Below are positions 3,569 to 58,697 of a DNA stretch of 64,000 nt, in pieces; the stretch's first letter is position 1; each line of letters begins with the position of its first letter. Source of the DNA: Candidatus Latescibacterota bacterium (lineage in GTDB: Bacteria > Latescibacterota > UBA2968 > GCA-2709665); contig OZ250150.1 in assembly GCA_965237675.1 (NCBI GenBank), positions 672,001 through 736,000 on the forward strand, in the 5' to 3' direction. The translations under genes were made by a program, and so were the position numbers. A model generated the notes under the pieces. The model saw only the letters and a list, made by a program, of their open reading frames with translations, did no database searches and was not told where the DNA came from.

Positions 3569-3640
3569 AAACTCTTTGCTCGTCATACGGTCGTTATAGA
3601 TTCTTGCCCCAGTTTTATTGAGCGCATCGATTGTGGCCTA

Positions 3641-50079: not shown

Positions 50080-51027
50080 TCATGTCCCCGAGATGGCGTC
50101 GATCATCTCCATCGTCTTCACCGCGTCGTCCAGACTACAGGCCGGGAACGGAAGTGCGCCTCCATTCTGGACCCATCTCAAGAACGTGCGATCCTGCTGA
50201 TAAAATCCTGGTTTGTAGCGGCGATCAATGTCATTCCCTTCGACGTTCTCCGGCTGTCCGCCCCTGCGTCTCAAGGTTGCGGCTTGCCCAAGAGCGGACG
50301 TGAAGGTAACCCCATTGCCGCGCACTTCCACGCGGTGCCCTCCCGGAGCGAACCAGTCCATAGAGGCACGCCCGACAGCCCCGCCTGTGAAGGTCAACAG
50401 CGCCGAACAGCAGTCCGGCATGGGACCTTCCACAGTATGGTGCATCGGCTGGACGCTCACCACGTCACCGCCGAAGAATCGCAACAGGTCCAAGGCGTGG
50501 ATGCCGTTTGCTACGCTCCAGCGTTTCAGGACCTCTTCAGGAAATTTCGGGTTTTCCCGGACCCGCTGGATATCTTCGTGGGCGTCCACAGTGACGCTTT
50601 GTACCGGCCCGGATTCGAGGATCAGCTCCCTGCCCTTGAGAAGCGTGGAATAGAACCGCCGATTTACGCCCACCATCGCCGGCGTACCCACCGCTCGCGC
50701 CAGATCGGCCAGCGCACGGGTCTGGGACGTATAGAGGCCAGGAGGCTTTTCCAGAAAGGTCGGGATACCGGACCGAATGAAGTCTGCGGCGACCGCAGCG
50801 ACCTGGAGGACACTCACGAGAACGAAAACGGCGTCGGGCCGATCCCCTTCCAGCAGGCTCTCGTGCAAGTTCAGGCGATTCGACACGCCGAACCGCGCTC
50901 CTGTCTCTTCCAGAACGCGGGGGTTGCTGTCCACAAGCGTCGTCACACACCCCTCGCGAAGGTCGGTGAGTACTTTCAGGTGCCTTTGGGCTATGTTTCC
51001 GGCTCCGACTACCGCAATGTTCAGCAT
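50080..51027 (-). CDS. Gfo/Idh/MocA family oxidoreductase
   Basis: IAVVGAGNIA, LEKPPG, VGVNRRF and GIHALDLL. Confidence 0.9.
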   Translation of the reverse strand: MLNIAVVGAGNIAQRHLKVLTDLREGCVTTLVDSNPRVLEETGARFGVSNRLNLHESLLEGDRPDAVFVLVSVLQVAAVAADFIRSGIPTFLEKPPGLYTSQTRALADLARAVGTPAMVGVNRRFYSTLLKGRELILESGPVQSVTVDAHEDIQRVRENPKFPEEVLKRWSVANGIHALDLLRFFGGDVVSVQPMHHTVEGPMPDCCSALLTFTGGAVGRASMDWFAPGGHRVEVRGNGVTFTSALGQAATLRRRGGQPENVEGNDIDRRYKPGFYQQDRTFLRWVQNGGALPFPACSLDDAVKTMEMIDAISGT

Positions 51028-51086
51028 TTCGTCCTGTTCCATGTAAGCATTGCACGCCTTGAAGTAACGAATCTGTTCCTCTGGGC

Positions 51087-51530
51087 TCAGATCTCTCGTT
51101 TTGAGCCCGTCGGCAAGGGGTGATACTTCACCTCGACTTCCACATCTGTGACTCTCAGCGGTCTCACCAAATCGTCCGGTCGCTCCACCAGCGGATCTCC
51201 AAACGGTTCGCCCCCTGATGTGGCCGCACCCGCTGCAAGTCAAATATCAGCCACATGCTCTGGTACGGAGCGACCTTATAGCCGTATTCCCGGCGGCATA
51301 TCTCCCCTTGCAGCGACTGGCCGTTGAGCGCGATTTCCAAGCGGTCGTCCGAGACCAGATCGACGATCTTGATCCGCAAGAGCACCTGACTGACGCGGCC
51401 TTCTTGCGCGTCGTCGACCAAGTAAAAGGGAATGGTATGCTGTGCCCGGTCGTCGCCTGCGATCTCCTCCGGCAGCGGGTGACCACTGCGAAGATAAGCA
51501 GTCCGATGAGGAGCACGGCGCCCGCACAAT
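51087..51530 (-). pseudogene. frameshifted C-terminal fragment of a larger protein
   Basis: ..LLRIKI..DRLEIALNG..GANRLEI, then a frame change to LVERPDDLVRPLRVTDVEVEVKYHP..*. No N-terminus. Confidence 0.55.
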
Positions 51531-51564
51531 GGCTTGTCGAGCTATTGAGGAAGCGTGTCTGAAG

Positions 51565-51589
51565 GTGGGGCAGACATTCCTGTCTGCCC
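51565..51589 (+). repeat. REP-like palindrome
   Basis: GTGG-GGCAGACA-TTCC-TGTCTGCC. Confidence 0.7.
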
Positions 51590-51724
51590 TTCTCATCGTC
51601 CGTCTGTCGCAATGCAGACAGAAAAACGGCTTGCACCGCCTTTATGGAGCCAATAGCCCTGGCGGCTCTTGCGTTACCACAATAAAGCGACTTGAGTAAG
51701 GAAACGACCGTATGGATTATTCGC

Positions 51725-52342
51725 TTACGGCCAGGTGGGGCGTTCCATCGAAAAAGACTCGGTGACGCACGCGTAGTCCAGATACCCGAGACGCCCCACG
51801 GGTTTCAGGGCTACGGTGTCGACAAGGCCATCCCTGATAGCCCGATCGGCAATGTGGATGCCAACCACCTGACCGAATACAACCGTGTTCGGATCGTCCG
51901 GATCGTCCGTGGGCAGATCCACGGTCCGGGTATGGATACACTCCAGGTGGACCGGGCTTTCCGCTACACGGGGAGGTTTTACGAGTCTTGAAGGCGCCTG
52001 GGTGACACCCGCGTATTCGAACTCGTTGACGTTTCCAGGCGCGGGTACTGCGGTCGCGTTCATCTGTGTCCGAAGCTCCCAGGTGACGAGGTTTACCACG
52101 AATTCACCGGTTTCCTGCGCATTCTTTATGGAATCCTTCAACCCGCCGTGGGTGTGTGTGGTTGTAGCGGCGAACATGACCTGCGGCGGGGCATAGGCCA
52201 CCGCGTTGAAAAACGAGTACGGGGCCAGGTTGATCGAACCCCGCGCGTCTATCGATGAAATCCATCCGATCGGTCGCGGCACAACGATGGCGTTAAAGGG
52301 ATCGCGACGCAGACCGTGGCGTTCGGACGTCTTGTAAAACAT
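51725..52342 (-). CDS. flavin reductase family (DIM6/NTAB)
   Basis: VVPRPIGWISS, NLAPYSFFN, KDS..N..ETGEFVVN, ESPVHLEC and GRLG..Y. Confidence 0.92.
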   Translation of the reverse strand: MFYKTSERHGLRRDPFNAIVVPRPIGWISSIDARGSINLAPYSFFNAVAYAPPQVMFAATTTHTHGGLKDSIKNAQETGEFVVNLVTWELRTQMNATAVPAPGNVNEFEYAGVTQAPSRLVKPPRVAESPVHLECIHTRTVDLPTDDPDDPNTVVFGQVVGIHIADRAIRDGLVDTVALKPVGRLGYLDYACVTESFSMERPTWP

Positions 52343-52397
52343 ACTCGAGGCCTCCCTTTCCGAAGGTTAACCTCAATTCGAAAAAAGATAACCGTTA

Positions 52398-52543
52398 AAT
52401 TGGCCACAAAACGCACAAAAGGCACAGAAGGTATCGGTGCGAAACGGCGTGTGTCGTAACTCCGTGATCCTGCAGTTATTTCGTTGTCTCTCGGCTATAC
52501 GCCCTGCAACAGGATAGCTGTTTTTGTGCCTTTTGTGGCAATT
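52398..52543. repeat. inverted arrays of 9-bp (G/C)(G/C)CACAAAA units
   Basis: GCCACAAAA-CGCACAAAA-GGCACAGAA versus TTTTTGTGCC-TTTTGTGGC. Confidence 0.7.
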
Positions 52544-52762
52544 AGCCTTAATTCCAAAAATACAGCAAGGCGACACCACGGCAAAGACTGCAGAAACGGG
52601 GTATTGAGGTCGTCCAATTGGACGTTTTCTCCGTTCACGTCCAGTGACCTTAAACATCCTGGAACTCCCACGTCAAATCGCCTTTGTTCTTCTGTGTATA
52701 TTCGACTTAAGGTCCCCAAAAAACGACGAATCAAGGTTAAGTCGTTTTCTTTGTAGCAGGGC

Positions 52763-53764
52763 CTACTTCCACTTGAACACTACACCCAGCGCGGCGCTCG
52801 GATCGTCGGCGAGCATCGTGTAGATTTCCTGGCACTGCTCCGGTTCAGCCACGTGGGTGATGAGGTCTTCAACGAGCAATCTTCCCTCGCCCATCAGGCG
52901 CATCACCAGCCGGCGGTCCCGATCCTTTGCCCATCGGTAGTAAATGTGGTCGGCCTCCGGTGTTTTGGGCTGGTGGGCGCCCAGGATGCTGACTTCGCGC
53001 AAATGCACATCGGCCAGGAAATCCATGTCGACGGAACCGCGCGGAGAACCCAGCGCGACCACACGGCCGGCCGTGCACGCAAGACGGACAGCGGTGGGAT
53101 ATACCGCGGGTTTGCCGGTGGCTTCAATGACGACGTTGGCGCCGTCTTCCACGCAATGGCGGCCGACCGCGTCCCGGATGTCGTCCACCGCGCCGGGGTT
53201 GAAGCAAAGGTCGATGCCGCGGCTTTGCGCCTTGTCCAGACGAAAGTCGTCTAGATCGATGGCGATTACCGGCAGGGCACCGGAGAGCCGCGCGAGCGTC
53301 GCCGCGAGTTGACCGACTATCCCCAGGCCGATGACGACCACAACCTCGCCCAATTCGATGCGCGCCACCCGAATTCCGTGGATGGCAATAGCGCCCATGA
53401 CCATAAACGCGGCGGCTTTGCCCGACACGGAATCCGGGACCTTCTGGTGGAAGGACCTGTCGCCGCGGAGGACGGTATGGCTGGCGTGGTTTCCCTGTCC
53501 GGCGACGCGGTCGCCGGGCCGGACACCCTCCACTTCCTTGCCGACCTCCAGGACGGTGCCGACGTTGCAATAGCCGGTCGTGCGGGGAAAACGCACCTTG
53601 TTTCCGGGTTCGCCGCCGTGGGTCCAGCCGTGGATCTCGGTGCCGACGCTGACGGCGGTGTACTGGTTTTCGATCAGGATGCCGTTTTCCGGCAAAGGAC
53701 CGGTTTCGAACGACGCCACCTCCATGTGGCGAATGCCGGGACTGACGAGACGCCTCGCTTGCAT
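52763..53764 (-). CDS. MDR-family dehydrogenase (SxGTE type)
   Basis: VSVGTE, GYCNVG, GDRV, HAS, GLGIVG and IEATG. Confidence 0.88.
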   Translation of the reverse strand: MQARRLVSPGIRHMEVASFETGPLPENGILIENQYTAVSVGTEIHGWTHGGEPGNKVRFPRTTGYCNVGTVLEVGKEVEGVRPGDRVAGQGNHASHTVLRGDRSFHQKVPDSVSGKAAAFMVMGAIAIHGIRVARIELGEVVVVIGLGIVGQLAATLARLSGALPVIAIDLDDFRLDKAQSRGIDLCFNPGAVDDIRDAVGRHCVEDGANVVIEATGKPAVYPTAVRLACTAGRVVALGSPRGSVDMDFLADVHLREVSILGAHQPKTPEADHIYYRWAKDRDRRLVMRLMGEGRLLVEDLITHVAEPEQCQEIYTMLADDPSAALGVVFKWK

Positions 53765-53848
53765 CGGGAAGTCCTTTCGGGTTGCCTGACGGCGGATATG
53801 AGCGAGTGATCGTTTCGGACGCGAACACCCACCAGACGCCGCGTGTGG

Positions 53849-54889
53849 TTATTGCGCCTGCCTGCGGTCCAGGGTCTGTCGGAAGAGCCCGAGAAAGTTG
53901 CCACCCCAGACTTTCCGGATTTCGTCTTCGGAAAGGCCGCGAGCGAGCATGGCGCTGGTGAGGTGAACAAGCTTTGAGACGTCTCCGACAACAGGGGTAA
54001 GCGAACCCATGCCGTCGTAGTCCGAGCCGATGGCAACGTGGTCGATACCGACGAGGTCCGCCACGTAACAAATATGGTCGACCAGGCGGTCGACGGATGG
54101 GTTCCCGGGATCGATGAAACCCGGCACGAAGGCGATGCCCATCACGCCGCCGGCGCCGGCCAGGGCCTTGAGTTGATCGTCAGTGAGACAGCGCCAGTGG
54201 TTGCAGACCGAAAAGACCGCGGTATGGGTCATCGTCACCGGCAGCGAAGATCGTTCAAGAACCTCGTAGAAGGCCCTGTCATTGATGTGTGCAAGGTCCG
54301 TGATGATGCCCAGCCGGTTGCTTTCCTCAAGCACGGCTTTGCCGAATTCCGTAAGGCCGCTGGCGCTCCTGCGTTCACGCTCACGATCGTCGGGCGTGCA
54401 CGGCCCGAATGGACTCTTGCTGCCCTGAAGATAGGCCGCGTCTTCGCCGCCTTCGCCGTGGGTAATTCCGATGCAGCGCACACCCAGGCGGTAGTAGAGC
54501 CGAAGAATATCCATCTCGGCTTCCAGCCATCGTCCTGCGCCTTCGATCGTGAGCAGGATACCTATTTTATCGGATTCCCGTGCCCGTCCCACATCCGCCG
54601 ATGACAGCACCAGCATCAGGTCGGCGGGATACCGTTCCACGGAAGCCAGGGTCTGTTCAAGGGTTACACGGACGTTTGCCGTGGGACCGTTGCCGACCAC
54701 GAAAAAGCCGGCGTTGAATCCGCCTTCCCTCATTCGGGGAATGTCGATATGATACGCATGGTCCGATTTTTTCAGGTCCATCGGGCGCTCGCCGCGGTGC
54801 ACATGCTCCACGGGCGTGTCGTTGTGGCCGTCGACGATAAGGCAGCGATCGTGGACTGCCTGCGCTTCTTCAAGGGTGACGTCCGGCAT
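53849..54889 (-). CDS. membrane dipeptidase (M19) family
   Basis: VDGHND, IEG, GLTEFGK..SNRLGI..DLAH, TH and HVAIGSDYDG. Confidence 0.92.
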   Translation of the reverse strand: MPDVTLEEAQAVHDRCLIVDGHNDTPVEHVHRGERPMDLKKSDHAYHIDIPRMREGGFNAGFFVVGNGPTANVRVTLEQTLASVERYPADLMLVLSSADVGRARESDKIGILLTIEGAGRWLEAEMDILRLYYRLGVRCIGITHGEGGEDAAYLQGSKSPFGPCTPDDRERERRSASGLTEFGKAVLEESNRLGIITDLAHINDRAFYEVLERSSLPVTMTHTAVFSVCNHWRCLTDDQLKALAGAGGVMGIAFVPGFIDPGNPSVDRLVDHICYVADLVGIDHVAIGSDYDGMGSLTPVVGDVSKLVHLTSAMLARGLSEDEIRKVWGGNFLGLFRQTLDRRQAQ

Positions 54890-54958
54890 GGGAATTGTCC
54901 TCTGGTGGGGGATGAGTGTGTGCCAGTGTGGGACGGAACGATGCCCGTTCGGGCCGGG

Positions 54959-56281
54959 CTACGGCGGGTCGATGGGTACTTTCTGATTCTTGCGAACCAG
55001 CGGGTCGTACGTGAATCCGCTGGAGCGTTTCTCGAACTCGGCCCGCACTTTTTTCATGTACTCCGGGCTCCGGCAGAGGTCAACCGCGGTTCCGGCGAAA
55101 ACTTTGGCGGTCTGCTGGAGCGCTCGCCCGGCGAAAGGCAGGGCGGCCTGCGCGGCCATGTCCCGGTGATGGACAGGGGTGCCCTTCGCATAGCATACCA
55201 TCTGGAATCGACCCAGGGGCGCCAGCCAGGAGACGTTGTCTTCGTCGGTGGAGCCCCGACCCTGGGAGCCGTTGCCCTTTGTGATTTTCGTATTAAAATC
55301 CTTTTTATAACCCAGGGTTTCCGCGCGTGTTCTGTCGGCTTCCGTCGGTTCTGGCGGCCCGAAGAGTTTCAGGTTTTTTCGGACGATCTCACACATCGCC
55401 TTGTTCCGCAGACGCGGGTAAACGGCAGTGATGCGCGACCATTTCATCCGCGTGTCGGTCGCCTTCGCGGCGCCCTGGGCGCAGGCGGTGAGGCGTTCAC
55501 GCACATGGTCGACCTGTGCGCGGTTCTTGCCTCGAACGAAGTACCAGATCTTGGCATAGGCGGGCACCACGTTGGGGGCGTCGCCGCCTTGCCGGATGAC
55601 GGAATGGATCCTGACATTTTCGGGCACGTGTTCCCGGAGATAGTTCGCGGCGATGTCCGTGAGCATCACCCCGTCCAGGGCGCTCCGGCCCCGGTGCCCC
55701 CACGCGCCGTGGGCAGTGCGTCCGAAGAATTCGTAAACGACGGAGTCCAGCGATGACCCGCCGAAATCGTTGACGCCGGAAGAACTCCCCGGATGCCAGG
55801 CGAGGCACGCGTCCAGGTCCCGAAACGCGCCATCGCGGGCCATGTAGACTTTCCCCGCCAGGGTCTCCTCGGCTGGACAGCCGTAGTAGATGATTTTTCC
55901 CGATGTGCCAATTGACTTGAGAATCTTTGCAGCGGCGACCGCGCCCGCGGCCGGGGCAACGCCCAGCAGGTTGTGGCCTCAGCCGTGACCCCACTGACCT
56001 TCCTCGGGACCGCAGTTCGGCAGCGCGTCGTATTCGCCGAGCATCCCCAAAGCCGGCCCTCCGTTGCCCCGGGTTGCGCGAAAGGCGGTGGGGATATTCT
56101 TGAACGGAAATTCGACCTCGAAGCCGCGTGAGGCCAGGTAGTCCGCGATGGCTCCGGAGGATTTGACCTCCCGGAAGGGCCGTTCCGCCCATGCATGTAC
56201 CCGCATAGAAAGGTCGCTGGCGCGTTTCGACTCGTCCGCTACGGTGCGATCGATGAGGTCCTTTTTTTCTTTCGAGGTCAT
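54959..56281 (-). CDS. AbgB-like M20 amidohydrolase with in-frame TGA at the conserved Cys (candidate selenoprotein)
   Basis: EYDALP..GHG-TGA-GHNLLG, GCPAEE, WHP, GRTAH, SALD, NYLREH, PNVVP and GSTD, all in one frame of 440 aa. Confidence 0.85.
55944..55978 (-). promoter_or_regulatory. candidate bacterial SECIS hairpin
   Basis: Directly 3' of the UGA: GCU-GGGC[GUU]GCCC-C-GGC, with the apical loop starting with G at +19. Confidence 0.45.
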
Positions 56282-56388
56282 GACATATCCCTTCTGTAAA
56301 AAACGCCGGTCCACCGTGAATAGAATTGCCGCGTTGGATCGTCAACTGTTCCGGATCGATCTTCACCCCGAGTTTTCGAACGGTACAT

Positions 56389-57477
56389 CTATGCATTAAC
56401 GATGGCATCAACGACCGCGTCGCCCACCTCCGGCGTCGCCGCGGTCCCGCCCAGGTCCGCCGGATGGTTTGCCGGATAAACAAGCGTTCGATCGACGGCG
56501 CGGTCAATTGTCTCCGAGGCGGCGGCGGCTTCCTTATCGTTATGGCGGCTGCCCAGCCAGGACAGCATCATCCCCGCGGAGAGGATCTGGGCTATGGGGT
56601 TGGCGATGCCCTTCCCGGCTATATCGGGCGCGGTACCGTGGGATGGCTGGAACACGCCGTAACGATCGCCTACGTCGGCCGAGGGCGCCATACCCATCCC
56701 GCCGATGGTGGCCGCGGCAAGGTCCGATATGATGTCCCCGAACATGTTTTCGGCAACCACAACGTCGTACCATGAGGGGTTGCGTAACTGGTACACGGTG
56801 AAGGCGTCCACGTAGGCATAATCCCGTTCGATGTCGGGATAGGATTCTGCAATCTCGTCGTAGATCTGCCTGAAAAAGGCCATGCTTTTCAGAATGTTGG
56901 CTTTGTCTACCGAGGTGACGCGGCTTTTCCCGTCAACGGGTGCCCCCTTCCGCTGCTTTGCGATTTCAAAGGCGTACCGTACAATCCGCTCGGTGCCGGC
57001 GCGGGTGATGACCATGTTGTCAACGGCGAGACTGTCGCCAAGAAGAACCCCGGCGCCTCGGGAGGCGTAAAGGCCTTCGGTATTTTCGCGGAGGATGACG
57101 TAGTCGAGCGGCGGATCCCCCGCGAGAAGCGGAGGTACGCCGCGATATTTTTTTATGGGCCGGATCCCGGCGTAGAGGTCCAGTTCGAAACGCAGTGTCA
57201 GCTGAGGTGCGATTTCGGTGCCATCGGAAAATCGGATATCCGGGTCGCCGGCGGAACCGAAAAGGACGGCATCGGCCTGCTTGCAGGCCTCGAGCGTCGG
57301 TTCGGGCAGGTCATTGCCGGTTTCGGAGTAGCACCTGGCGCCGACCGGGTGTTCGGAGAAAGCGAAACGAAGATTCGGATGCGGCTCCTCGAGAGCGAGA
57401 AGGACTTTGAGCGCTTCTGCGACCACTTCCGGGCCGACCCCGTCTCCGGGGAGAACGGCGATGTTGTAGGTTGGCAT
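56389..57477 (-). CDS. isopropylmalate/tartrate dehydrogenase family
   Basis: LPGDGVGPEV, LRENTEGLY, VDKAN, ENMFGDIISD and HGTAPDIAGKGIANP. Confidence 0.92.
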   Translation of the reverse strand: MPTYNIAVLPGDGVGPEVVAEALKVLLALEEPHPNLRFAFSEHPVGARCYSETGNDLPEPTLEACKQADAVLFGSAGDPDIRFSDGTEIAPQLTLRFELDLYAGIRPIKKYRGVPPLLAGDPPLDYVILRENTEGLYASRGAGVLLGDSLAVDNMVITRAGTERIVRYAFEIAKQRKGAPVDGKSRVTSVDKANILKSMAFFRQIYDEIAESYPDIERDYAYVDAFTVYQLRNPSWYDVVVAENMFGDIISDLAAATIGGMGMAPSADVGDRYGVFQPSHGTAPDIAGKGIANPIAQILSAGMMLSWLGSRHNDKEAAAASETIDRAVDRTLVYPANHPADLGGTAATPEVGDAVVDAIVNA

Positions 57478-57533
57478 GCACGTCCTTTACAAGGGTTGTT
57501 GAGGTTTGAAAACACCGAAACGCGGGCGTATCG

Positions 57534-58697
57534 TCAGCGGCGGCGAGGGGAACGCTGGCGATCATGGATGCCGACGCGGAATCCGCCCTCGGATCCCACG
57601 CCGCGCTCGAGCATATCCGGTTCGACGTCGAATCCCGCACCGGGCGTTTCGGGTACGATCAGCCTGCCGTCTCGCATCCGCCACCCGTCCAGGACGATGC
57701 CGGGCATATCGGCGGGCGCCGCTTCCAGGAGGCTGAAGTTGGGAATGGAGGCGGCGAAGTGGGCGTGTGCGTAGCGTTCGATGATACTCCCCCAGCAATG
57801 GGGGGCGCACTTCGCGCCCCAGGGTTGGATGCGATCCGCGGTGGCTTTCCACCAGGTCAGACCCTTGAAGCGGAAGTCGTGCTGCACGATATCAATCCAT
57901 CCCTTTTCGACCATATCGAAGAAGTCGGGTGGAGGCGGCCCGGATTCACCGTCGGCCACGAGCGTGTTGCAGCCTCTCTGGACGATCGCCTCCTTAAAGG
58001 CCTGGTTGAACGCCCGATCTTCAGGAAACGGCTCTTCGAACCAATAGACCCCCACATCCCGGCAGCGTTCGAGTATGTCCAAAGCGATATTGAGCGTGGT
58101 TCCGTTGTTGGCGTCAACCAGAATTTTCGCATCCGGTCCCGCGGCTTCGCGAACCGCGTGGATCACCAGCACGTCCCTGTCCGTTCCTTCCCGAACGGGC
58201 ATCCAGCGGGCTCCGCGACCGATTTTGATTTTAAAATTGCTGTACCCATAGTCGTGCCCGGTTCGGACTTCCTCGTGGAAGATTCGGCGCGCTTTATCGT
58301 CGGAAACACCCAGATCGTCGATATAGATGGAACCGTCGTAGAGTTCCACTTCGCGGGAGCCGCGCGCGCCCAGGAGTTGGTAAAGAGGCACCCCTTCACA
58401 TCTGGCGGCCAGATCCCACAGAGGCAGATCAATGGCTGCGCCGGCCCCGTTCGACCCCAGGGGAAGTTCGAAGAGGTCCGAGGGACGTTTACCAAGCAGC
58501 GCTTCGGCGTGGCCTCGGTCGAGGGGCGACCAGCCGATACCCTCCGCGCCGCCCCCGGTGCAGATGCGCACGACCGGGTCCGTAACGGCCTGGCCATGTG
58601 CGCCGAGGCGGGCGTTAGAACCGATGGTACGCGGACGTCTTCCGCGGATGAGAACCTTTTCGATCTTGACGATGGGATCGGAGTAAATGCTGGGCAT
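57534..58697 (-). CDS. mandelate racemase/muconate lactonizing enzyme (enolase superfamily)
   Basis: LWDLAAR..PLYQLLG, KIKIG, VDAN, WFEEP, DGE, PH and PGAG. Confidence 0.9.
   Translation of the reverse strand: MPSIYSDPIVKIEKVLIRGRRPRTIGSNARLGAHGQAVTDPVVRICTGGGAEGIGWSPLDRGHAEALLGKRPSDLFELPLGSNGAGAAIDLPLWDLAARCEGVPLYQLLGARGSREVELYDGSIYIDDLGVSDDKARRIFHEEVRTGHDYGYSNFKIKIGRGARWMPVREGTDRDVLVIHAVREAAGPDAKILVDANNGTTLNIALDILERCRDVGVYWFEEPFPEDRAFNQAFKEAIVQRGCNTLVADGESGPPPPDFFDMVEKGWIDIVQHDFRFKGLTWWKATADRIQPWGAKCAPHCWGSIIERYAHAHFAASIPNFSLLEAAPADMPGIVLDGWRMRDGRLIVPETPGAGFDVEPDMLERGVGSEGGFRVGIHDRQRSPRRR

Follow-up and report, generated by a model that had tools for sequence, protein, structure and literature searches.

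The window analysed here, a 64,000-nucleotide stretch of a Candidatus Latescibacterota bacterium (contig OZ250150.1), carries on its minus strand a gene for an M20D amidohydrolase that the standard code splits in two at a single in-frame TGA. We conclude, with a probability of roughly 0.9, that this TGA is a genuine, conserved selenocysteine (Sec) codon and that the gene is not broken, a prediction made from sequence. An earlier note on this DNA had proposed the same decoding, and that proposal is strongly supported by the Sec machinery of the genome, conservation of the codon, the pairing of Cys and Sec forms of the enzyme, co-occurrence with selA, selection on the codons that follow and a candidate Sec insertion sequence (SECIS) element. 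The gene, hereafter Sec-M20D, and its recoded codon are as follows:

54959 to 56281, minus strand: complete Sec-M20D amidohydrolase gene, with ATG at 56281 and a TAG stop at 54961-54959, encoding 440 residues including U101.
55979 to 55981, minus strand: UGA codon 101, taken as Sec, in the peptide GHG-U-GHN, from column conservation and alignments with Protein Data Bank (PDB) entries.

Under translation table 11 the locus appears as two open reading frames (ORFs), 55979..56314 (111 aa) and 54959..55843 (294 aa), which share one frame on the minus strand. The earlier note had described them as one gene interrupted by a single TGA at 55981-55979 in the context GHG*GHNLLG, and the strand reads exactly so there: GGT CAC GGC TGA GGC CAC AAC CTG CTG GGC. 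Readthrough yields a protein of 440 residues with one recoded codon, in which all of the motifs that had been listed are present, namely EYDALP (83-88), PAEE (136-139), WHP (162-164), NYLREH (213-218) and GSTD (343-346). The start is the ATG at 56281 and not the GTG at 56314, with which the homolog N-termini MTSKEKK and MTAKTKK agree. TGA is an ordinary stop elsewhere, terminating 12 of the 33 long ORFs in the window, so it is not generally reassigned in this genome. The assembly is also supported at this point, which had been put forward as something to check: Logan contigs of runs from three studies, one of which may be the window's own source and two of which are further studies, span 55979-55981 and keep the TGA with no alternative letter. 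Two long ORFs in other frames overlap the gene, at 54749-55756 (plus strand, 335 aa) and 55497-56507 (minus strand, 336 aa); such spurious open frames are usual in GC-rich DNA.

The 5.6-Mb genome (G000), in which the window spans C1:672001-736000, encodes the complete Sec pathway. The earlier note had named selA, selB, selD and tRNA-Sec as the genes to look for, and all four were found: selA (561 bits), selB (358 bits), tRNA-Sec (73 bits) and selD (363 bits) each score above their curated cut-offs, ARAGORN reports a tRNA-SeC with anticodon TCA, and selD has an in-frame TGA of its own. A formate dehydrogenase (FDH)-like gene also carries a Sec codon. On the genome contig C1 these lie at:

C1:4984023-4987542, minus strand, outside the window: selA, selB and tRNA-Sec(UCA), head to tail in one cluster, assigned by profile scores.
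C1:309559-310482: SelD, itself a selenoprotein (TCG-U-AAK), with the SECIS AGUCC[GGUC]GGACU, whose loop begins 17 nt past the UGA.
C1:3919073-3920572: FDH-like molybdopterin oxidoreductase, NCSRA-U-HAP (nt 1954 of locus L215), with the SECIS GGUUGCC[GGUCU]GGCAGCC.

From the cluster, the Sec-type SelD and the Sec FDH-like gene together it follows that this organism makes selenoproteins. The FDH-like gene lies below the TIGR01553 cut-off (152.9 bits), and given this score its product may not be formate dehydrogenase proper. Its open frame has a second TGA, at nt 3589 of locus L215, which is probably the true gene end.

The internal TGA is shared by every close ortholog that we found. An ortholog is present in 37 of 41 relatives, and all 37 matches have exactly one TGA. 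A search of the phylum gave matches at E <= 1e-40 in 81 of 168 genomes; the 55 matches at 67-100% identity each have one TGA and come from three families, f1 (18 orthologs, own genome included), f2 (31 of 31 genomes) and f4 (6 of 76 genomes). The next match in the phylum, G154 at 65% identity, has no TGA and reads GHGCGHN, as do 18 homologs at 46-64% identity, from metagenome-assembled genomes (MAGs) of Planctomycetota, Kiritimatiellae, Lentisphaerota and Armatimonadota, and more distant homologs. The other 28 phylum matches (33-43% identity) have no TGA, and one of them has a TAG. The 63 Sec-form loci that were fetched amount to 42 distinct genes, 17 further TGA genomes being known by their count of one TGA only; in all 42 genes the stop stands in the same column and is always TGA, never TAA or TAG, a recurrence well beyond chance. 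Two further Sec forms come from metagenome contigs. Of the 105 full-length homologs among the best 120 matches in the protein database, 102 have Cys at this position, at up to 76% identity. The closest relatives there, 14 entries of 294-336 aa at up to 98% identity, all start just past the TGA and are truncated gene calls, one of them bearing the name 'peptidase dimerization domain-containing protein [Candidatus Latescibacteria bacterium]'.

Co-occurrence and selection point the same way. Of the 168 genomes of the phylum, 131 have a selA match. Among the 55 TGA genomes all but one (54) have it, and the two genomes (86% and 90% complete) of genus g29, which has a Cys ortholog, show none. Ratios of nonsynonymous to synonymous substitution (dN/dS; Nei-Gojobori, against ten orthologs, taken where dS was unsaturated) are 0.07-0.15 for codons 102-440 and 0.11-0.26 for codons 1-100. 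Selection is thus as strong downstream of the TGA as upstream, and the downstream part must be translated and under purifying selection. Both patterns, TGA in close orthologs with Cys in distant ones and sustained selection past the codon, are those that the earlier note had suggested looking for. A distant M20D homolog in a small genome of the same phylum (G046:C295:3320-4477, 34% identity) has one in-frame TAG.

The nucleotides that follow the UGA are constrained beyond what the protein explains. Across the 42 Sec genes the third-position entropy is 0.56, 0.34 and 0.63 bits in windows covering codons 101-120, against about 0.9-1.4 bits in all other 10-codon windows, and equally conserved protein stretches elsewhere keep 1.1-1.2 bits. 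In the Sec forms codons +5 to +13 vary little or not at all, the frozen ones being GGC (42/42), GCC (42/42), CCG (40/42), GCC (42/42), GGT (41/42) and GCG (42/42), and are free in 19 Cys forms. In two Cys forms (L158 and L160) the encoded peptide is identical, LLGVAPAVGAV, and in a third (L159) it is two residues off; all three use other synonymous codons, and the constraint therefore tracks the UGA and not the protein or codon bias. The block folds as two adjoining hairpins, hairpin 1 and then hairpin 2:

55934 to 55965, minus strand: block with frozen synonymous sites in all Sec forms, 16-47 nt after the U of the UGA.
55954 to 55964, minus strand: hairpin 1, an invariant mini-hairpin, GGGC[GUU]GCCC, with its loop 18 nt after the UGA.
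55936 to 55953, minus strand: hairpin 2, the best SECIS candidate, CGGCCGY[RGGU]GCGGUYG, with a 7-bp stem and a 4-nt loop that begins 32 nt after the UGA.

The stem of hairpin 1 is unchanged in 38 of 38 sequences, its loop reads GTT 37 times, GTA four times and ACA once, and alone it has an energy of -4.6 kcal/mol; it might serve as a spacer or as an auxiliary SECIS element. We infer that this compact fold shortens the effective distance from the UGA to the GGU loop of hairpin 2. Hairpin 2, whose loop in this window is GGGC, is paired in 266 of 266 cells (38 distinct sequences), with one pair occurring as GC (30), GU (6) or AU (2) and another as UG (20) or CG (18), and RNAalifold independently recovers hairpin 1 together with six of the seven pairs of hairpin 2. 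Its evaluated energy is -11.4 kcal/mol here, with a mean of -10.0 and a range of -11.4 to -7.3 over the 42 genes. Bacterial SECIS (bSECIS) elements are described, in a figure legend of PMC13188914 (Fig. 2), as having a 3-9 nt loop, a 4-16 bp stem, a G in the first two loop positions, a distance of 16-37 nt from the UGA and a minimum free energy (MFE) of <= -7.5; hairpin 2 fits this description, with the weakest ortholog energy, -7.3, just missing the -7.5 threshold. When the two hairpin pairings are imposed on the Cys forms, the mean energies are +0.6 and +2.0 kcal/mol.

Another candidate fold was rejected. A long 12-bp bulged hairpin, which is the MFE structure in many sequences, is 93.2% paired, has one pair broken in 23 of 38 sequences, shows no compensatory change and does no better than any of 500 shuffles. 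Rfam at its gathering threshold returned tRNA-Thr only, and a permissive Rfam scan of 55850-56050 gave a single chance-level match, on the opposite strand (E 1.9). In one sequencing run (X3), unitigs of 32-41 nt confined to the frozen block (window 55935-55984) have a depth of 87-108, against about 5 for the flanking contigs, an excess that would be expected if many co-occurring relatives share the block letter for letter.

The protein belongs to the M20D subfamily. Its NCBIfam TIGR01891 'amidohydrolase' score is 181.9 bits, against a cut-off of 153.75, and residues 182-273 match Pfam M20_dimer; in the Pfam scan PF01546 fell short of E 0.001 for this protein, and it is precomputed on many homologs. 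An AlphaFold2 model has a predicted local distance difference test (pLDDT) score of 93.4 and a predicted template modelling (pTM) score of 0.91. The top Foldseek matches of this model are all M20D, with TM scores of 0.93 for HmrA (3RAM; target-normalised, root-mean-square deviation 1.9 A), 0.86 for PM20D2 and 0.75 for CsAga (6SLF), and the modelled protein has the two-domain (catalytic and dimerisation) M20D fold. The earlier note had called it an M20/AbgB amidohydrolase, of which the M20 part stands, as M20D/TIGR01891, and the AbgB part is not supported. The AbgB-like 3IO1 matches at a phmmer E of 3.1e-06, far weaker than HmrA or PM20D2. The scan of 8 neighbouring ORFs showed no AbgA-type second M20 gene or transporter, the search for abgA/abgT having gone no further in the genome. 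Some homologs are called 'aminobenzoyl-glutamate utilization protein B' by the Joint Genome Institute (JGI), a name that was assigned automatically.

The TGA falls on the metal-ligand Cys of the HxCGH motif, as had been claimed from the sequence. In five PDB alignments representing four M20D proteins (3RAM, 7YH4, 8XZC, 1YSJ and 3IO1) the Sec column is the motif Cys, in GHACGHN of HmrA (3RAM) and PM20D2 (7YH4 and the mutant 8XZC) and in MHACGHD of YxeP (1YSJ) and the AbgB-like 3IO1. C/U101, H103, E138, E139, H163 and H371 are invariant in a 28-sequence alignment of Sec and Cys forms (A3). The predicted site comprises, besides U101:

55169 to 55171, minus strand: His371, putative fifth metal ligand, invariant in A3; we take this role to be as in M20D structures.
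55973 to 55975, minus strand: His103, predicted metal ligand (HxC/U-G-H), invariant in A3, equivalent to His139 of ILR1 (passages of PMC8149794).
55865 to 55870, minus strand: Glu138-Glu139 (PAEE), predicted general base and metal ligand, invariant in A3, equivalent to Glu172/Glu173 of ILR1 (same source).
55793 to 55795, minus strand: His163 (WHP), predicted metal ligand, invariant in A3, equivalent to His197 of ILR1 (same source).

The EE motif defines M20D (PMC7804941). In CsAga the motif Cys is reported to bridge two zinc ions (in passages of PMC11511702), and in ILR1, according to the passages of PMC8149794 on that enzyme, changing the motif Cys137 to Ser abolishes hydrolase activity and the metal is modelled among residue 137, His139, Glu172, Glu173 and His197. 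The ligand spacing Cys/His+2/Glu-Glu/His of ILR1 is the same as that of U101/H103/E138-139/H163, and by analogy we infer that Sec101 would bridge the metals. Sapep, first considered as another Cys-ligand M20D enzyme, was dropped from the comparison, being described in part of PMC2937973 as PepV-like with cysteines that are not in the active site.

Taken together, these elements suggest how the enzyme could be made and how it could work. SelD would supply selenophosphate, SelA would turn Ser-tRNA-Sec(UCA) into Sec-tRNA-Sec, and SelB, bound to a hairpin of the mRNA just past the UGA, would bring it to the ribosome, so that UGA-101 is decoded co-translationally. The best candidate for the SelB target is hairpin 2 with its RGGU loop, and hairpin 1 would occupy the gap from the UGA. 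The product would be a full-length cytoplasmic M20D metallo-amidohydrolase or dipeptidase, with Sec101 standing in for the HxCGH Cys and, alongside His103, Glu139, His163 and His371, holding a two-metal centre, Glu138 acting as the general base. The outcome would be a selenolate-ligated, probably metal-bridging hydrolytic site, in which Sec might make the ligand resistant to irreversible oxidation or tune metal affinity or Lewis acidity.

A different role for the residue has to be weighed, for which a second cysteine is relevant:

56012 to 56014, minus strand: Cys90 in LPNCG, 11 residues before U101, a possible Se-S partner, from its conservation in the subfamily.

All 42 Sec forms and all 19 Cys-form loci have Cys90, and among full-length database homologs 102 of 105 do. 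It lies in an LP[NDGE]CG insert, 11-12 residues before the Sec or Cys throughout the subfamily, that HmrA and PM20D2 do not have. It might act as a partner in a Se-S or S-S bond, or else as an additional ligand. Sec101 might then serve mainly in redox chemistry, either through a reversible selenenylsulfide with Cys90 that switches the metal site or as half of a pair that guards against over-oxidation, and Sec would have arisen from a redox-active Cys, as is held to be the usual course in bacteria (PMC1794560, PMC13188914). We think this unlikely. Cys90 is conserved equally in the Cys forms, the protein has no thioredoxin-like motif, and the motif Cys of M20D enzymes is documented, in the passages of PMC11511702 and PMC8149794 cited above, as a metal ligand and not as a redox residue.

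The UGA might also be read through without selenium, if near-cognate decoding put Cys, Trp or some other residue there, or the enzyme might be produced with Cys or Ser under selenium scarcity. The inserted residue is not identifiable from sequence alone, and Cys functions at this position in many close homologs. Even so, the idea is very improbable: the full Sec machinery accompanies the TGA in 54 of 55 genomes, the frozen RNA block is exclusive to the TGA forms and fits the bSECIS model, and if the product contained Cys a free replacement of TGA by TGC or TGT would be expected, whereas TGA is kept in 42 of 42 genes. That the TGA is a true stop, giving a naturally split M20D with a 100-residue N-terminal piece and a restarted C-terminal piece of about 330 residues, is scarcely credible, although gene callers annotate the locus in this way and the 14 truncated database entries begin just after the TGA. 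The split would separate GHG from GHN within the metal-binding motif and remove the essential Cys; the stop is never TAA or TAG; gene callers do not agree on a restart codon, their products having 294, 320, 329 or 335 aa; and both the frozen block and the co-occurrence with selA would be left unexplained. A recent nonsense mutation or an assembly or sequencing error, which a lone in-frame stop in a single assembly would normally suggest, is refuted by the recurrence of this TGA in every one of 55 orthologs, from three families and as distant as 67% identity, by dN/dS of 0.07-0.15 past the codon and by the agreement of contigs from other studies.

Several results weigh against the reading of the UGA as Sec at a SECIS-directed, metal-binding position. 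One TGA genome (G032, 91% complete, in 430 contigs) has no selA match. The covariation of hairpin 2 is modest, with five of its seven pairs invariant and one pair (2 cells) showing a two-sided change, and 18 of 500 shuffles equal its observed covariation score. Its loop lies 32 nt past the UGA, against 17-18 nt for the canonical loops of SelD (GGUC) and the FDH-like gene (GGUCU), so that SelB may bind either hairpin. The single-sequence MFE of the 91 nt after the UGA carries no signal (z = +1.03 against shuffles), and the unconstrained MFE is alike in Sec (-18.7) and Cys (-18.3) forms; MFE is a poor discriminator in this GC-rich gene. Four Cys forms fall within the Sec clade described below, which means that Sec is dispensable for the fold. 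The likely metal-ligand role comes from homology and from reports on other M20D enzymes, and Sec incorporation itself is deduced from genomic evidence.

The history of the Sec form was examined by a quick IQ-TREE search (LG+G4, 160 rows, Sec/Cys column masked, rooted on the most distant rows). A single 46-row clade (Shimodaira-Hasegawa-like approximate likelihood ratio test, SH-aLRT, 87) contains every one of the 42 Sec forms and is nested within Cys forms, the next clade out having 64 rows and a support of 95. The four Cys forms inside it are P0007, P0014 and the pair P0005/P0006. The Sec/Cys label changes at least four times on the tree, and well-supported branches force at least three of these changes. 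This fits one gain of Sec from Cys followed by later reversions, a direction that would depend on the chosen root. A metagenome scan for the DNA of P0005 did not recover its contig, the best match being 82%; it supplied the three Cys forms L158-L160 that served as the codon control above. The six Sec genes of f4 (6 of 76 genomes of that family; L057-L061 and L096) nest within the diversity of f2, a family from another order. This is a hint that the Sec gene moved laterally between lineages of the phylum, the branches concerned being weak (SH-aLRT 83). Several MAGs with the Sec gene (L085, L086, L091, L092, L095 and L097) were labelled Gemmatimonadota or Gemmatimonadetes by their submitters, and they group with Latescibacterota in the phylum-level search and in the gene tree, so that the labels conflict.

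The best match among characterised proteins is HmrA of Staphylococcus aureus (M20D, 3RAM; phmmer E 1.2e-38, profile E 1.9e-78), which shares with Sec-M20D its two-domain architecture and the positions of GH-x-C-GHN, EE and His, but which has Cys, lacks the 7-residue Cys90 insert and is only about 25% identical. It prefers Met-X dipeptides, according to part of PMC9486568. Human PM20D2 (7YH4, 8ZEL) comes second (profile E 2.5e-66), its GHACGHN aligning with GHGUGHN; it is a eukaryotic Cys form, again without the insert and about 24% identical, and by PDB titles it is a beta-alanyl-lysine or Xaa-Arg dipeptidase. More remote members of the same subfamily are the N-alpha-acylglutamine aminoacylase CsAga (6SLF, profile E 9.9e-16) and the plant ILR1/ILL2 hydrolases for amino acids conjugated to indole-3-acetic acid, IAA (1XMB, 1.1e-16), both Cys forms with other substrates and 16-18% identity; the column of CsAga 6SLF was matched to U101 by the family motif only.

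Sec as a direct ligand of a catalytic metal is known from formate dehydrogenase alpha (Mo/W-Se) and [NiFeSe] hydrogenases (passages of PMC13188914), which use the same SelA/SelB/SECIS route. These are redox enzymes with redox-active metals and no homology to Sec-M20D, whereas the scaffold of the latter is that of a hydrolytic Lewis-acid two-metal site. Also comparable are the predicted hydrolase-like selenoproteins of the 2026 inventory, the UshA-like NF041198/NF049981 and the NF004836 family related to the C-terminal glutamine amidotransferase of cytidine triphosphate (CTP) synthase, which in the text of PMC13188914 on these families offer a precedent for Sec in non-oxidoreductase, hydrolase-type scaffolds. 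They have other folds and motifs (CxU, GxUxG), none is M20/TIGR01891, and in that text none is stated to put Sec in a co-catalytic two-metal hydrolase centre. The remark in the earlier note that most selenoproteins are thiol oxidoreductases holds as worded, with the qualification that a few predicted hydrolase-like families already stand in this inventory (same passages of PMC13188914).

M20, amidohydrolase and TIGR01891 have no entry in Table 1 of PMC13188914 (2026), where 119 families and subfamilies of prokaryotic selenoproteins are listed. Deep-Sep, BSepDB and a 2022 review (PMC12013277, PMC13326102 and PMC9312934) name no amidohydrolase, peptidase, hydrolase or aminoacylase in their main texts, their supplementary lists being where the family might still appear. 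Literature searches returned no report of a Sec-containing M20 enzyme or amidohydrolase, the relevant part of PMC2276186 mentioning only ygeY, as a neighbour gene, and PMC8318568 having nothing pertinent, and NCBIfam 20.0 has no selenoprotein-specific model for this protein. We therefore rate it as a new selenoprotein family that is not in current catalogues, allowing that supplementary lists might include it, and Sec as a ligand of a hydrolytic two-metal site is likely, by analogy with other M20D enzymes, to be its unusual trait. A larger claim combines three parts: that this would be the first recognised family in which Sec bridges the co-catalytic two-metal centre of a non-redox metallopeptidase, that Sec arose there from Cys once, in Latescibacterota, with several reversions, and that its SECIS is bipartite, with the mini-hairpin bringing a distal GGU loop into the range of SelB. 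For this combination the chances seem to us about even.

If it is right, selenium could be selected for tuning or protecting a Lewis-acid metal site, beyond redox chemistry. To our knowledge, the role of Sec in nearly all known selenoproteins is redox chemistry or the ligation of redox metals such as Mo, W and Ni. A hydrolytic two-metal enzyme with a natural Sec/Cys pair at its metal-bridging ligand would offer a clean system in which to look for a non-redox benefit of selenium, the candidates being metal affinity and selectivity, Lewis acidity and the oxidation resistance of the ligand, with the close Cys-form relatives (up to 76% identity) as built-in controls. The two-hairpin layout is likewise a test case for the maximal distance of a bacterial SECIS loop from the UGA. 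There is also a practical side: the public annotations of close relatives that we examined are all split or truncated, so that the M20D enzymes of a widespread uncultured phylum are mis-annotated, which a family model with a Sec column would mend.

The gene lies within a same-strand run that encodes an MR/MLE enolase-superfamily protein, an Iso_dh-type dehydrogenase, Sec-M20D, an M19 dipeptidase, a Zn-alcohol dehydrogenase (ADH)-like protein, a flavin-reductase-like protein and a GFO/IDH/MocA oxidoreductase:

50080 to 58697, minus strand: same-strand gene cluster around Sec-M20D, conserved within the genus.
56389 to 57477, minus strand: upstream neighbour, Iso_dh-type (isopropylmalate/tartrate-like) dehydrogenase (PF00180, 308.8 bits).
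53849 to 54889, minus strand: downstream neighbour, M19 membrane-dipeptidase family protein (PF01244, 272.9 bits).

None of these neighbours of the Sec gene is present at the 18 Cys-form loci (Iso_dh 0/18). L076-L120 include 27 Sec-form loci, and at 22 of these (f1 and f2) Iso_dh lies next to the Sec gene; of the five without it, those named are L094 and L096-L098 of f4. M19 adjoins in 16 of the 17 most similar fetched loci (L076-L092, the exception being L089) and in no other Sec-form loci. The nearest characterised enzymes, HmrA and PM20D2, are dipeptidases. Sec-M20D is most likely, by analogy, a dipeptidase or an N-acyl-amino-acid hydrolase of peptide catabolism, and the cluster at 50080-58697 may form an operon that serves to break down some unusual peptide or N-acyl amino acid.

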